In this document: in pieces, positions 14,958-41,976 of the stretch
Layout: the number at the start of each line of letters is the position of its first letter
Numbering within the stretch: position 1 is the first letter of the stretch
Virus record (IMG/VR): IMGVR_UViG_3300027804_002812
Coordinates: 224,001 to 288,000 of that record
DNA: 64,000 nucleotides
Origin: a virus
Taxonomy: Duplodnaviria; Caudoviricetes
Strand: one strand, 5' to 3'
Position numbers and translations under genes: made by a program
The notes under the pieces: generated by a model
What the model was told of the DNA's origin: nothing
What the model saw: the letters and a program-made list of their open reading frames with translations, nothing else
The model's database searches: none

Positions 14958-15530
14958 TCACTTTACCAAATGAGGATATTTCTCCATCATTTTATTCACC
15001 TTTGTAATTGTATTAATACAAACCCCCAACTCTTCAGATATCCTATTATGCCTCCATCCCAACTTTTTTAATTCAACAATTTTCTTAATCTTTACTTTTT
15101 CAAAAAATAATTCAGGACTTTCACTTGTACCAACTTTTCTACCTGTATAAATTCCAAGTTCCTTTGCCCTTTTTATTCCCTTCATTCTCATCTCCTTAGA
15201 GTCTCTATTTATCACCAATTCCACAATCCCCAATAGATACTGCTGAATATAAAACGGTATAAACTTACACCTATATCCCTTCGAAATATTTTCCTTTAAT
15301 GGAAGAAATTGAATATTTCTCAAATCTGCAATATACTCAGGGGGTACGTTCAATCTATATCCAAATGAAACAGGAAACTTGTGGTCTATCGTCATTCCCT
15401 CAGGAACAATAATTCCTTTATAATTCAAATTTTGATTAGTATACCAATCAACCTTTCTTCTATAACTATTCATTGAAATTTCCATAACTAAAAAATAAAC
15501 AATACCACAAATTTTGTAAAATTTTTCCAA
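14958..15530 (-). CDS. HNH-like endonuclease fused to serine-resolvase-type arm and HTH
   Basis: TIDHKFPVS...NIQFLPLKENISKG (HNH); RMKGIKRAKELGIYTGRK...ISEELGVCINTITKV (resolvase arm + HTH). Start may be 15473. Confidence 0.6.
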   Translation of the reverse strand: MEKFYKICGIVYFLVMEISMNSYRRKVDWYTNQNLNYKGIIVPEGMTIDHKFPVSFGYRLNVPPEYIADLRNIQFLPLKENISKGYRCKFIPFYIQQYLLGIVELVINRDSKEMRMKGIKRAKELGIYTGRKVGTSESPELFFEKVKIKKIVELKKLGWRHNRISEELGVCINTITKVNKMMEKYPHLVK

Positions 15531-15591
15531 AAATTTTTTTTAACGTTGAAGGAGTATTTCCAAATAGGGGGTCAATGTTTAGAAAATAAAA

Positions 15592-15613
15592 AACCCCTCT
15601 GTTGGGAGGGGTT
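15592..15613 (-). terminator. CCCCTC variant terminator
   Basis: AACCCCTC...GAGGGGTT with A-run. Confidence 0.75.
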
Positions 15614-15617
15614 AATA

Positions 15618-15905
15618 TTAGTTCAACTTCTTTATGTATTGACCAACACCTGTACTCATGAATCCATTTTTCCTCAACTTACTTTTAATCCTAAGACCTG
15701 TATCCTTATCAAACCCATTCCATCCAAAATAACTTGGACTTTCCACATCCACCACAACATAACCCCCAATATATTTTACAGTCACACATTCAGAGTCCAT
15801 ATACTGTTTCAAATCATCAAGAATATCAATATCTCGGACTTCTTTAATCACCCCTCGTATAATCTTAATCAATTCAGATTCCGTAAGTCTTACAATTTTT
15901 TTCAT
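15618..15905 (-). CDS. Leader-tagged hypothetical protein
   Basis: Start revised to MKKIVRLTESEL at 15905, with TATTTAT just upstream. Confidence 0.8.
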   Translation of the reverse strand: MKKIVRLTESELIKIIRGVIKEVRDIDILDDLKQYMDSECVTVKYIGGYVVVDVESPSYFGWNGFDKDTGLRIKSKLRKNGFMSTGVGQYIKKLN

Positions 15906-15998
15906 ATTAATAAATACCCAAAAAAGGTCATTTTTTTCCCAAAAATTATTTTGCATAACATAGGGGATTATCCCCCCAAAACTGACATTCTGACAGGA

Positions 15999-16060
15999 GG
16001 GAAGGGGGGATACGGGGGGTAGGGGCCCCATATGGGGGGGTGGACCCCATGCCAGAGGGG
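15999..16060 (+). other. G-quadruplex-forming motif
   Basis: Six G-runs (G3, G6, G6, G4, G7, G4) within 62 nt of an AT-rich genome. Confidence 0.6.
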
Positions 16061-16100
16061 AGGTATTAGATATATTTATTTATCCCCCACCCCCTATGAG

Positions 16101-16163
16101 TTATCCACAACTTATCAATGTGGATAACTTGTGGAGGTAAACAGAATAATATATTGTGGATAA
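16101..16163. promoter_or_regulatory. DnaA-box cluster 1 (three perfect boxes)
   Basis: TTATCCACA 16101-16109; TGTGGATAA 16119-16127 and 16155-16163. Confidence 0.8.
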
Positions 16164-16352
16164 GTGGTATGACAGGCAGTCAGGAATAAAAACCACGTAG
16201 GGGTAACCAAAGAATGTTCTGTATACACAGTACAATTATATCTTGGAATCGTACGCACTACTTAACATAATCTAGATTATATAACATACTTCTATAACTC
16301 CCCCAACCTTTTATTGTATTATGTGGGGAATGTTTAGACACACCTTAAAAGT

Positions 16353-16787
16353 TTAGATAGTCATGAAAGGTTGTTGACCTTCCTTACGATTGATGTGCCA
16401 TGTCCCCACTTCAAGATTACGTCCCCTAATCTTAAACTCATCAGGAATGGCGGGGTTCTCAGTAACATCTTTGATTACAGACCTTATCCCATCACGGACT
16501 GACTTGTACTGTTCATACTCCATATCGTTAATAAGGTTGGGGTAAGACCAATCCAAATACTTCCCCTCATCAATCAACTCCTGAATCCATTCCTTCGTCT
16601 CAAAACCATAAGCCTCAGAAAACTCAGTGGGGTCGAACTCAAAGTTCAAAAAAATTGTTGTATAGAGATCCAAGTCCTCCTGTCTGACAAACACATCCTT
16701 AATCCATGGGTACTTCTTTTTTAATGCTCTCTTAATCAACTTGAAAACATATACGTTATAAATTTGTTCAGGTGTAATCTTCCCCAT
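16353..16787 (-). CDS. Hypothetical protein
   Basis: 144-aa ORF with TATTTAT upstream. Confidence 0.75.
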   Translation of the reverse strand: MGKITPEQIYNVYVFKLIKRALKKKYPWIKDVFVRQEDLDLYTTIFLNFEFDPTEFSEAYGFETKEWIQELIDEGKYLDWSYPNLINDMEYEQYKSVRDGIRSVIKDVTENPAIPDEFKIRGRNLEVGTWHINRKEGQQPFMTI

Positions 16788-16801
16788 GGTAATACTGTTT
16801 A

Positions 16802-17038
16802 TTATAAATACTCAGTCTTTATCATCTTTTGACATACCTCCACAATATCCTTGGGGAATATCTCATAGTCAGACACTTCGTACAACTTCTCAATCTTGGC
16901 ATCAACACAAACCCAAGCATCCATACTTAATGGTTTATTCGTAAACCCCCTCTTCGCTTTCTCAAAATACAGAGAACCAACCTCTTCCTCTTTGAAGGAG
17001 ATAATAAACCGTATTCTCCCCTCCTCTATCTTGTCCAT
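16802..17038 (-). CDS. Hypothetical protein
   Basis: Start revised to MDKIEEG at 17038 (TATTTATA at 17041-17048); the longer frame runs through DnaA boxes. Confidence 0.65.
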   Translation of the reverse strand: MDKIEEGRIRFIISFKEEEVGSLYFEKAKRGFTNKPLSMDAWVCVDAKIEKLYEVSDYEIFPKDIVEVCQKMIKTEYL

Positions 17039-17058
17039 CTTATAAATAAAATCTGTCA

Positions 17059-17162
17059 TGTGGATAAGTATACATTCGGAACATATAAAAATAAAGTTAT
17101 CCACACACTGACATTATGTCTGGCGGGGTCGTCATGTGGAAAACTTTTTCCATTGTGGATAA
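17059..17162. promoter_or_regulatory. DnaA-box cluster 2 (three perfect boxes, one 1-mismatch)
   Basis: TGTGGATAA 17059-17067 and 17154-17162; TTATCCACA 17097-17105; TGTGGAAAA 17135-17143. Confidence 0.8.
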
Positions 17163-17247
17163 CTATTATGACCAAAAAACTTGATTTTGTCAAAATGTCA
17201 GGGGAGCGTTACATGGGGGATAATCCCTTTGGGGATATTCGGTTCCC

Positions 17248-17271
17248 CCACTCTCTACCACATTCCCCCAC
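17248..17271 (-). promoter_or_regulatory. GTGG x3 array with 10-bp period (MraZ-box-like)
   Basis: CCAC at 17248, 17258, 17268; inverted partner GTGG at 17509 and 17519. Confidence 0.5.
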
Positions 17272-17405
17272 CATGAGTAGTGAATTTATGGCTGGTTATA
17301 GTGTAATGACCACTTTTTCCCCCCTGACGATAGCAGGAAGACCATTTTTTTACTATGTCTGTTTTCTAGCAAAAAAAGGATTAGTAAGTGAGACCCCGCG
17401 TGTAA

Positions 17406-17418
17406 CGAACGTAGTGAG
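17406..17418 (+). repeat. Isolated mini-hairpin core of the repeat element
   Basis: CGA-AC-GTA-GT-GAG. Confidence 0.6.
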
Positions 17419-17858
17419 TGTTTTAATCCCCCTTCAACGAATCACCATGGTTATATAGACCATATGAGATGACCATTACATTCCCCTTCAAGGGACATAT
17501 CGTGGATGGTGGTAAGAAGTGGGAGTAAGTATATGACATGGTATTATGAACCGAAGGTATTATCTTATATGTCATCTCACTATAGAACTGTATGTGAAAT
17601 AATATATGTTAATTCGGAAATTCCCCGAATGGGGATGGTTTATTTAACATCTCACCTTCACACTATACACCATCTCGTTTGATGTCCCCTCATTTAGCGG
17701 GGATTAGTTTGGCGGGGATTATACAACAAGAGAGAGAATAAGGGACAATCCACGGAACAAAGTGTAGTGGATAATGTCTGTCCCGAAATGAACGAACTTG
17801 GTGGATAATCATCACAATTATTTAATATGGTGTGAGTTTCTTTATTCTATTTATTGCT

Positions 17859-18557
17859 ATGATAAAAGACTTACTAACAATCGTTATACCCTGTAAGAAT
17901 GAAATGGAGTTAATTGATTTGACTCTGAGTTTAATTAACAAACAAGAGGGCATATCAGGTACAAGAGTTATTATTGCTGATTCCTCTGATGATTCGACAA
18001 GGGACATTATATTATCAGGAGGACATGATAATTTGAACATTACTATTATTGATGGTGGTTATCCGAGCGTAGCAAGAAACAAGGGTTCTGAGTTATGTAC
18101 AACCCCCTATATATTATTCTTGGATGCTGATATATTCTTGATTGATAATACCACCATTAAGAAGTGTATGGATATTATACAGAAACAGTCATTGGAGTTA
18201 TTAACCTGTAAGTTTAGATGTGAAGGCAGGTATTCATTTGTCTTCCCCATCTTTGAATTCTTTAGAGATTTATCTGTTAGATATTCCCCATGTGCGATTG
18301 GTGGTTTTATGTTGTTTGAATATGATACCTTTATTAGAGTTGGAGGATTTGATGATGAAGATAAGTTTGCTGAGGATTTTCATCTTAGTAGTAAAATCTC
18401 CCCTAAGTTATTTAAGGTGGTGAATAAGAAGATATATACTACGGATAGAAGATTTAAGAAGAAAGGATTATTTTATATGGTTAAAGTTGCCATTCTATCC
18501 ATAATGAATAAGAACAACCCCGCGTTTTTTAAGTATGACCACAACTACTGGCTATAA
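17859..18557 (+). CDS. Glycosyltransferase family 2
   Basis: TIVIPCKNE, IIADSSDD, ARNKG, LFLDAD, GGFD...AED; start revised to 17859 (TATTTAT at 17848). Confidence 0.9.
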   Translation: MIKDLLTIVIPCKNEMELIDLTLSLINKQEGISGTRVIIADSSDDSTRDIILSGGHDNLNITIIDGGYPSVARNKGSELCTTPYILFLDADIFLIDNTTIKKCMDIIQKQSLELLTCKFRCEGRYSFVFPIFEFFRDLSVRYSPCAIGGFMLFEYDTFIRVGGFDDEDKFAEDFHLSSKISPKLFKVVNKKIYTTDRRFKKKGLFYMVKVAILSIMNKNNPAFFKYDHNYWL

Positions 18558-19260
18558 GGTCGTGATAATGTCCGACCTCCACTTGGGAATGAAAGACTCT
18601 TCCCCTAAAAAGATATTGGAATTCTTGGATTCCATTCATACCGACCTGCTAATCCTTAATGGAGATATCATCGATATGGACGCCCTTAAACGTGGAAGCA
18701 AATGGAAAAATAAACATACAAAAGTTATTATGAAACTTCTTGATATGTCCCGTGATACTGATATCATATATCTTCGTGGAAACCATGACTCAGACTTGGA
18801 AGATGTTTATGGATATAAATTTGGAAACATAAAGTTTATGGATGAATACATCTATAATCATGAAGATAAAAAGATGTTGATATTTCATGGTGATAAAATT
18901 GATGTCACCGTCAAATATAAATTTCTTAGTCAGATCGGATCCATCGGTTATGACGTTGCCCTTCGACTGAACACTTTATATAATGAATATCGAATGAGAA
19001 CTGGCAAACCATATTACTCCATATCCAAATGGATTAAAAAAAATGTGAAGAATGCAATCTCCTTCGTTAACGACTTTGAAATAAATGCTTGTGAATACGC
19101 CAAATCCAAGAAATGTGATTCCGTCATATGTGGACATATTCATATCCCCGTGATTAAAAAAATTGATGAAATCGATTACTACAACTCAGGTGATTGGGTT
19201 GAAAACTTCTCCTGTCTTGTGTTGACTTCAGAAAATGAATGGAAATTAATTGAAAGGTAA
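18535..19260 (+). CDS. Calcineurin-like metallophosphoesterase, UDP-2,3-diacylglucosamine hydrolase (LpxH)-like
   Basis: SDLHLG, LNGDIID, GNHD, FHGD, CGHIH, YNSGDW. Confidence 0.85.
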   Translation: MTTTTGYKVVIMSDLHLGMKDSSPKKILEFLDSIHTDLLILNGDIIDMDALKRGSKWKNKHTKVIMKLLDMSRDTDIIYLRGNHDSDLEDVYGYKFGNIKFMDEYIYNHEDKKMLIFHGDKIDVTVKYKFLSQIGSIGYDVALRLNTLYNEYRMRTGKPYYSISKWIKKNVKNAISFVNDFEINACEYAKSKKCDSVICGHIHIPVIKKIDEIDYYNSGDWVENFSCLVLTSENEWKLIER

Positions 19261-41229: not shown

Positions 41230-41976
41230 ATGATATTAAAGAAGACTAACAGCAGGGTTTATACAATAAATTTATTTTCAGACTATCTACTAACCAAAAT
41301 CCCAAACACAGAAGAATCAATTTTCTCTGTAGCAGATTGTAAAAATTTCATTATTATAAAAGGCAAGACCTCCCATAAAGAAATTTTGGATATCAGTTCA
41401 ATAACAAAAGAGTTCAACGAAAAATACGAACCTGAAACACCAATTTCTCACACAATAGATTTAATTGAATATGATTGTAAGTTATCCAAAGTAAAAAATT
41501 TGGAATTCATCTTACATAAGTCAGAAAACTGTTCTTACCATAAAACCCAAATTGAAAAATTCTCCTTGAATGAATCATCATTTGATTTCAATTGTTACCC
41601 ATCGAAAGTATCTGATGATGATTTGATTGTGACATCCGAATTCCCTCATGGTTATTCCTTGAATCAGGGAAGGCTTATCTATCTTTACGGAAAACATATT
41701 TTTTATAGTATTCCAACTAACTACAGAGATTCATCCATTATTTTTAATCTGTCTTTGGAAAAAAATGATGATAATGATAATATCATATCAATCTTTGATG
41801 TGGATAAAAACTCTGAAGATGAAACCTTAAAGTCCGCAATATTAGATGTATTCGATTTTGATATGTCTTGGTTATCATCTGAAATGAAAAAAGTGGATTG
41901 GAGTGTTGAACTCACAAATCCACTCGAGGAATATCCTTTTATCAAAAAGAAAAACAAGGACTTTATTATTTTCTAA
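41230..41976 (+). CDS. Hypothetical protein, remote similarity to SAM synthetase (MetK) domains
   Basis: NLFSDYLL...IFSVADC..FIIIKGKT and PHGYSL resemble MetK N-terminal and central segments; catalytic motifs not seen. Confidence 0.35.
   Translation: MILKKTNSRVYTINLFSDYLLTKIPNTEESIFSVADCKNFIIIKGKTSHKEILDISSITKEFNEKYEPETPISHTIDLIEYDCKLSKVKNLEFILHKSENCSYHKTQIEKFSLNESSFDFNCYPSKVSDDDLIVTSEFPHGYSLNQGRLIYLYGKHIFYSIPTNYRDSSIIFNLSLEKNDDNDNIISIFDVDKNSEDETLKSAILDVFDFDMSWLSSEMKKVDWSVELTNPLEEYPFIKKKNKDFIIF

Follow-up and report, generated by a model that had tools for sequence, protein, structure and literature searches.

Plasmid and phage origins of replication combine DnaA boxes with initiator repeats, and the iteron-type origins with auxiliary DnaA boxes include P1 oriR, which has boxes at both ends, F oriS, pSC101 and RK2. 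Inverted groups of such boxes have also been described in T5-like phages, where the injection-stop (iss) region consists of IRC-spacer-IRD and IRD'-spacer-IRC' within a conserved, palindrome-rich untranslated region; the inverted repeats lie ~3 kb apart and carry 8 DnaA/DnaA* boxes, including TTATCAACA and TTATTAACA (Davison, bioRxiv 10.1101/866236). In bacteria, the basal unwinding system (BUS) of oriC is made up of DnaA boxes, DnaA-trios and an AT-rich tract (PMC8287927), and E. coli has loci that control DnaA, namely DARS1, DARS2 and datA, with boxes I and II of the DARS sites set 5 bp apart (PMC6868365). Here we analyze a 1.9-kb locus with two mirror-image groups of DnaA boxes in the genome of an uncultured jumbo phage. 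The locus lies in a 64,000-nucleotide stretch, called the window below, that corresponds to positions 224,001-288,000 of the 326,291-bp IMG/VR virus record IMGVR_UViG_3300027804_002812; coordinates are those of the window unless the genome is named. We consider it most likely that the locus is the main cis-acting initiation region of the phage and not a copy of a bacterial oriC; its mechanism cannot be fixed from sequence. The version that we tentatively favor, while holding it at somewhat less than an even chance, is that the locus is a replication origin or initiation locus of the phage, to which host DnaA is recruited as a helper in the way that it is at plasmid origins.

The first-pass annotation of the window had reported six perfect TTATCCACA boxes within 1.07 kb and a seventh at 41799, and all of them are present (Table 1). 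Shuffled versions of the window contained 1.26 +/- 1.04 boxes, and none of 100 shuffles reached the observed 7. In the whole genome there are 11 perfect boxes, 6 in the locus and 5 elsewhere that match the chance rate. The three near-matches listed with them were also found: the site at 17135 is TTTTCCACA and fits TTWTNCACA, the DnaA-box consensus quoted by Davison (bioRxiv 10.1101/866236), and those at 17766 (TTATCCACT) and 17800 (TTATCCACC) have one mismatch each, at the last base. Seven boxes matching TTWTNCACA fall within 1.07 kb, a cluster of consensus boxes such as marks an oriC-type BUS. Four of the six perfect boxes occur in the extended form AGTTATCCAC / GTTATCCACA, and every copy of that 10-mer in the genome lies in the locus; the extended GTTATCCACA form is typical of high-affinity DnaA sites. 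The boxes are in mixed orientations, with spacings of about 19 or 38 bp.

The boxes belong to two mirror-image modules built around ORF A and ORF B, the two small minus-strand frames that the annotation had correctly placed between the clusters. Reading outward, each module passes from DnaA boxes to a TGTCAnnnTGTCA motif (T) and on to a GGGGATAATCCCC palindrome (P). In the right module, T (TGTCAAAATGTCA) and P (GGGGGATAATCCC) follow the boxes rightward, and ~450 nt of conserved non-coding DNA with repeats and two hairpins comes after them. In the left module, read leftward on the minus strand, a ~100-nt tract of G and C runs stands between the boxes and T (TGTCAGAATGTCA), which is followed by GGGGATAATCCCC; beyond the left P come a GGTCATTTTTTTCCC element and then the ATG (15905) that opens a leftward block of 23 genes. 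T and P are not equally far apart in the two modules, the difference being 9 bp. Exact GGGGATAATCCC sites number only two in the 326 kb, the left and right P palindromes, and T, P, GGGGGGATACGGGGGG, CCCCATGCCAG, the A/T tract CGGAACATATAAAAATAAAG, GACCACTTTTTCCCC, TGGCGGGG and the hairpin cores are all unique to the locus in the genome. The non-coding part holds CCACTTTTT-type repeats, and two TGTCA half-sites accompany the two palindromes at the locus. The G-quadruplex (G4) motif at 15999-16025 is the sole canonical one in the genome on either strand and is kept in 7 of the 11 relatives checked, and the density of runs of five or more G or C reaches its genome maximum here. The locus is thus a single-copy site dense with conserved cis-elements, as expected of an origin or other master cis-site.

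Relatives were found through the neighboring GT2 glycosyltransferase protein and two conserved DNA words, including the right T motif. The locus is present in at least 28 further uncultured IMG/VR contigs of 29-317 kb, presumably from related phages; a search for cultured relatives among 50,697 phage records with the locus (blastn) and with ORF A and ORF B (tblastn) gave no match, and a search for related loci with ORF A alone as query was unsuccessful. Common to the relatives throughout are the T/P anchor, both modules, ORF B and the non-coding stretch. Conservation of the non-coding DNA is at least as high as that of neighboring proteins at 63% amino acid identity, and in one relative, with a GT2 protein of only 63% identity, long non-coding runs are invariant. 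Consensus boxes occur at 9.8/kb in the 200 nt left of the anchor and at 0.13/kb in 177 kb of flanks from the same loci, an enrichment of about 75-fold, and they recur at the same positions: at fixed offsets from the T motif (-89 and -32/-30), with the second cluster 1.0-1.7 kb further left. In one relative a left-hand box is at a new position and the number of boxes is unchanged. The expectation that the boxes would be conserved was borne out as to position, but not in every relative, about one in three showing decay: 7 of the 22 distinct ones have degenerate boxes only (TGTTGATAA, TGTTAATAA, TGTTCATAA) and retain the rest of the locus. Because these seven keep everything else, we conclude that the boxes, although under selection in most lineages, are accessory to a core of T, P and non-coding elements. 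A subclade of five relatives (L031, L032, L041, L042 and L045) has two plus-strand open reading frames of ~140 and ~128 aa in place of ORF A; its consensus DnaA boxes are also lost, and one of its CCACTTTTT repeats is flipped. Two further anchor matches were discarded as chance: a second copy in contig G026 is a 12-mer within a gene, and a match in a Lachnospiraceae metagenome-assembled genome (MAG) lies inside a transporter-like gene and gives no clue to the host.

Among the systems outlined above, the T5 injection-stop region is the closest analogue described, and the comparison with it made in the first-pass annotation proved apt. In both cases two inverted, DnaA-box-bearing modules stand a few kb apart, with genes between them, in a large conserved untranslated region of palindromes and repeats next to a block of small genes, and each module has several DnaA boxes in which the consensus TTATCCACA is mixed with TTATCAACA/TTATTAACA variants. 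In T5, however, the box pairs are 3 bp apart in 131-bp near-identical repeats inside a 10-kb terminal repeat, whereas here the shared arms are short (9-13 bp), the box spacing is 9-29 bp, no terminal repeat is apparent, and this freshwater myovirus of 326 kb is not related to T5. In T5 itself no function of the boxes has been proven. The best functional model, by analogy, we find in plasmid origins, where initiator repeats accompany DnaA boxes. In those origins DnaA boxes flank initiator-type repeats, for which the repeats of our locus are candidates, and there too small genes are embedded at the locus, and host DnaA is a helper and not the sole opener, as we propose here. Our locus departs from iteron origins in having no recognizable Rep gene, short CCACTTTTT-type repeats at an irregular spacing of 32-42 bp, modules that are 1 kb apart where those origins keep theirs within ~250 bp, and a G4 motif and hairpins without counterpart.

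Several observations support the reading of the locus as an origin: (i) the enrichment of the boxes and their fixed offsets to the T motif; (ii) the mirror architecture, the motifs unique to the locus and the conservation of the non-coding DNA; (iii) the sole G4 motif, the co-varying hairpins and the flipped repeat; and (iv) the presence of a helicase, a family-B polymerase and a ribonucleotide reductase in a phage without its own DnaA. With regard to the last of these, the genome (326,291 bp, 33.7% GC, completeness rated 100%) is that of a jumbo myovirus encoding a tail sheath and baseplate J, and it also has genes for a class I ribonucleotide reductase (RNR), a DnaB-like helicase (53.4-54.8 kb) and a family-B DNA polymerase (88-90.8 kb); PolA and a DnaG zinc ribbon were not found in the genome. 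A check for a DnaA-like initiator of the phage's own, which had been proposed at the outset, came back empty. Neither a DnaA AAA+ domain nor the DnaA DNA-binding domain (domain IV) is present in the genome at E <= 1, and a phage-encoded DnaA or DnaA-domain-IV protein is rejected on that basis. In our working model host DnaA would bind the perfect, GTTATCCACA-type high-affinity boxes, and phage proteins, possibly ORF A and/or ORF B, would bind T, P and the CCACTTTTT repeats. The nucleoprotein complex, together with structure-prone DNA (the sole G4 motif and two C-GNA-G hairpins), would open the duplex, on which the phage DnaB-like helicase and family-B polymerase could then start. Because the same modules probably also hold the promoters of both outward gene blocks, replication and early transcription may be coupled.

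A number of findings weigh against an origin. The GC-skew inflection for which the first-pass annotation had suggested looking is absent from the locus; the cumulative curve declines almost monotonically, in step with gene strand. No DnaA-trio array stands beside any box, where an array is at least 3 trios (3'-GAT-5' type, NAN) starting 0-16 bp from a box (rule from PMC8287927); the scan gave no more than two NTN runs, both 4 triplets long and with 1-2 triplets that fit the consensus, which is no better than background near-boxes of the window. There is no clear AT-rich unwinding repeat at the locus, the conserved 16-nt A/T tract between boxes (17081-17096) having no repeated 13-mers. The replication genes are more than 150 kb away, fold searches returned no Rep, winged-helix or helix-turn-helix (HTH) fold for ORF A or ORF B, and both modules stand directly upstream of outward gene blocks, a position equally compatible with promoters. 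Finally, because 7 of 22 relatives keep T, P and the non-coding region with degenerate boxes only, the core function cannot depend on DnaA. Like a BUS, the locus groups consensus DnaA boxes within a non-coding gap, here in a phage without its own DnaA; a copy of an oriC BUS is nevertheless rejected because there is no trio array within 16 bp of any box, the orientations are mixed and the spacings are ~19/38 bp. The broader proposal of the annotation, that the phage uses or titrates host DnaA or that the locus is a genome-end or injection signal, stands insofar as the boxes far exceed chance, are conserved and occur in a phage with no DnaA of its own, but there is no skew inflection, no DnaA-trio element and no evidence of a genome end.

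The two hairpins of the non-coding stretch, H1 and H2, have inner mini-hairpins with C-G closure around a GAA, GTA or GAAT loop. Direct tabulation of the outer stems in relatives gave 8 distinct stems for H1 and 7 for H2, all fully paired, whereas arms drawn from different sequences pair at only 47-52%. On the plus strand G:T wobbles outnumber A:C wobbles by 9 to 3, and H2, which has a DNA fold z of about -2 on either strand, is flagged as terminator-like on the plus strand. C-GNA-G triloop hairpins are unusually stable single-stranded DNA mini-hairpins, which we take as a lead only. On neither strand does the 436-nt non-coding stretch as a whole fold better than its shuffled versions (z = -0.67 and -1.06), and scans of 15000-19000 and of the window gave no Rfam family (E <= 1) and no tRNA. 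A known RNA gene is rejected on these empty scans; a large structured RNA is unsupported by global folding, with only the two local hairpins co-varying. In one subclade, the L031 group, the GACCACTTTTTT repeat is flipped, which speaks for a site in double-strand DNA. RNA-library contigs cover parts of 17222-17402 and 17517-17661 at a depth of 2-12, no higher than over neighboring genes; this coverage may be carried-over DNA and, being scattered and shallow on genic and non-coding DNA alike, does not decide transcription. Because the repeat is flipped, global folding and Rfam are null and RNA depth is unremarkable, we read the non-coding region as an array of DNA sites predicted to bind proteins, together with two elements that form structure, and not as a large structured RNA.

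These data bear on other explanations. DnaA serves as a transcription factor for lambda pR and for its own gene, and an early-transcription hub is an explanation that we regard as possible though on balance rather unlikely. T and P would here be the core and operator of two divergent outward promoters, alongside a leftward promoter for ORF B and ORF A, all gated by DnaA; that host DnaA at or upstream of the starts would tie phage early expression to the replication or growth state of the host is likewise conceivable and, to us, somewhat doubtful. The left module is 58 nt from the first gene of the 23-gene leftward block and the right one faces a 7-gene rightward block, box 17059 abuts the start codon of ORF B, and sigma70-like hexamers occur in the T/P motifs on both strands, with box 17154 at the predicted leftward start. 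The right T motif, for example, includes TTGACA on the minus strand in a sigma70-like TTGACA-17-CATAAT (17193..17165), and ATGTCA-18-GATAAT on the plus strand. However, such hexamers are no more numerous than in shuffled sequence, and the motifs occur nowhere else in a genome of ~350 genes, so that they are not general phage promoters. The sigma70 hexamers may even be irrelevant, given that Shine-Dalgarno enrichment is absent before genes and a TTTG-N17-21-TAnnTTTG signal of Bacteroidota type is 4.5-fold enriched upstream of them; this signal suggests and is compatible with, but does not prove, a Bacteroidota-type host, promoter typing of the genome being merely suggestive. Transcription would also leave 450 nt of conserved repeats, hairpins and the G4 motif unexplained, and the 9-bp difference in T-to-P spacing also counts against this reading. 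We see only a small chance that the 9-mers are bound by a phage protein and merely resemble DnaA boxes, or that the non-coding part is chiefly a non-coding RNA (ncRNA) gene with the boxes in its promoter. Tolerance of TGTTGATAA, TGTTAATAA and TGTTCATAA at the -32 position would suit another binder, but the extended form of four of the six boxes and the lack of an encoded domain-IV protein do not, and the co-varying hairpins, plus-strand wobble bias and RNA-library contigs that would suit an RNA gene are set against the folding, Rfam, depth and repeat-orientation results given above.

An improbable alternative, in our estimate, is a T5-like DNA-entry, end or packaging signal, with the inverted modules serving as injection-stop repeats, the boundary of a terminal repeat or a pac site; that membrane-associated DnaA pauses or anchors incoming DNA while small leftward genes are expressed first is, we think, just as improbable. 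The inverted DnaA/DnaA* modules with their TTATCAACA and TTATTAACA variants, in a conserved untranslated region as in T5, would agree with this, as would a leftward block of many small open reading frames without assigned function. Contig ends also cluster here: 11 of 28 related contigs end on the box side of the anchor and at most 2.1 kb from it, where about 0.9 would be expected (those breaking within 2 kb of the locus are G003 (L057), G009, G027, G001, G015, G023, G011, G022, G018, G030 and G002). These ends are, however, scattered over 2 kb, from -88 to -2082, with one in a poly-G run (>15 G), and their clustering fits sequencing or assembly trouble at G runs and secondary structure, plus strain microdiversity, better than it fits a defined end, so that the genome terminus proposed for this site in the annotation found no support. 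Moreover, the record, although labeled linear without end repeats, assembles as a circle: because the last 118 bases of genome G000 (326174-326291) repeat bases 14-131, the assembly is apparently circular or has a collapsed terminal repeat. The wider box gaps add to these points, and a role for DnaA in T5 itself is only a preprint hypothesis. Very unlikely, in our view, is a DnaA decoy or modulator similar to datA or DARS, in which the clusters would titrate DnaA or alter its nucleotide state and so shut down or re-time host initiation, with no direct service to the replication or transcription of the phage. Each copy of the phage genome would bring in seven consensus sites, and each module is, like a DARS core, a non-coding set of three boxes with the first opposed to the next two (16101+ / 16119- / 16155- and 17097+ / 17135- / 17154-). 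The gaps are 9 and 29 bp where boxes I and II of DARS are 5 bp apart, however, and the locus differs from DARS, which acts on DnaA, in being in a phage and embedded among other conserved motifs; for a decoy the fixed spacing to T/P and the rest of the conserved locus would be superfluous, and a third of the relatives have lost the boxes.

Table 1. Features of the locus, in window coordinates
Feature	Position	Strand	Remarks
GGTCATTTTTTTCCC, copy of GACCAYTTTTT-type repeat	15926..15940	+	between left palindrome and start codon 15905; invariant in alignment A1
Left P palindrome GGGGATTATCCCC	15963..15975	.	kept in left flanks of 13/15 relatives
Left T motif, TGTCAGAATGTCA on minus strand	15983..15995	-	mirror image of 17188-17200
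G-quadruplex motif GGGAAGGGGGGATACGGGGGGTAGGGG	15999..16025	+	within G/C-run tract reaching about 16096
Left DnaA-box cluster	16101..16163		16101-16109 (+), 16119-16127 (-), 16155-16163 (-)
ORF A, 144 aa	16353..16787	-	homologues at same place in relatives
ORF B, 85 aa	16802..17059	-	kept in all relatives; ATG abuts box 17059
Right DnaA-box cluster	17059..17162		17059-17067 (-), 17097-17105 (+), 17135-17143 (-, TTTTCCACA), 17154-17162 (-)
Near-invariant A/T tract CGGAACATATAAAAATAAAG	17077-17096		within right DnaA-box cluster
Right T motif TGTCAAAATGTCA	17188..17200	+	found in every relative by construction
Right P palindrome GGGGGATAATCCC	17215..17227	.	single partner of left P in genome
Iteron-like CCACTTTTT-type repeats	17245..17355 (17248, 17310, 17342)	+	unique in genome; 3-6 copies in relatives
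Two CCCCTTCAAC/G repeats and flanking conserved blocks	17428..17497	+	
Hairpin H1	17533..17575	+	7-8 bp outer stem, internal loops, inner ACC-GAA-GGT mini-hairpin
Hairpin H2	17606..17650	+	two-tier design as H1, inner CCCC-GAAT-GGGG
GCGGGGATTA / TGGCGGGGATTA repeats and one-mismatch boxes 17766-17774, 17800-17808 (both minus)	17695..17808	.	closest relatives only

With regard to the genes at the locus, neither ORF A nor ORF B has a Pfam or PHROG match. The AlphaFold2 (AF2) model of ORF A (pLDDT 85) gave weak matches to KH-like and alpha-beta folds (Z <= 5.4), and that of ORF B (pLDDT 80) has a weak likeness to half of a GNAT fold (Z 5-7). A plus-strand frame at 17060-17458 is probably spurious, as it is not kept in relatives. 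The gene just outside the left module, 15618-15905 on the minus strand, has the N-terminus MKKIVRLTE. About 400 nt left of the locus, a minus-strand frame at 14958-15530 (190 aa, or 175 aa from ATG) contains a DHKFPVS motif, from which we read it as likely to be an HNH-type, probably homing, endonuclease; no HNH family match was obtained for it, and it was not seen at the corresponding place in the more distant relatives listed. Its C-terminal HTH has weak PHROG matches to 'DNA invertase' and 'HTH DNA binding protein'. An invertible segment between the inverted modules was considered and rejected, the orientation of ORF B being the same in all relatives, and the 'invertase' match was set aside as evidence of inversion since it covers the C-terminal HTH only. 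On the right, the repeats at 17695..17808 directly precede the GT2 gene (ATG 17859), and the first genes of the rightward block (17859-19260, +) encode this GT2 glycosyltransferase and a calcineurin-like metallophosphoesterase. The genes after the conserved non-coding stretch vary among relatives, and the locus borders a region of variable gene content. Two claims about the setting had to be narrowed: the non-coding stretch described as the only long one is the longest in the window, but by crude calling of open reading frames genome G000 has other gaps of 0.8-1.3 kb (83855-84707, 168449-169771 and 197433-198258), and the switch from minus- to plus-strand genes is real but not special because the genome has ~50 such switches, one of which the locus, set between the 23-gene and 7-gene blocks, adjoins.

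What sets the locus apart is that five independent criteria mark it: DnaA boxes, unique palindromes and repeats, the sole G4 motif, co-varying hairpins and family-wide conservation. To our knowledge hardly any replication origins or DNA-entry signals have been mapped in jumbo phages, and although this phage, whose DNA is present in many freshwater and lake metagenomes, is uncultured, the locus is a concrete, exceptionally well defined 1.9-kb fragment that can be tested directly. There is an outside chance that a freshwater jumbo-phage family uses mirrored DnaA-binding modules, a sole G4 motif and C-GNA-G hairpins as a new initiation or DNA-entry device. Such a device could be a bidirectional origin, with structure-prone DNA clamped between two complexes of DnaA and phage protein, or a T5-like staged-entry stop that would tether incoming DNA to membrane-bound DnaA; we know of no description of either in jumbo phages. 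Should host DnaA be used, a phage with its own helicase and polymerase would still be dependent on the host initiator, and the decay of the boxes in a subclade would offer a natural means of comparing lineages to see when such dependence is given up. If true, the unexplained T5 pattern of inverted DnaA-box repeats would be extended to an unrelated phage group.

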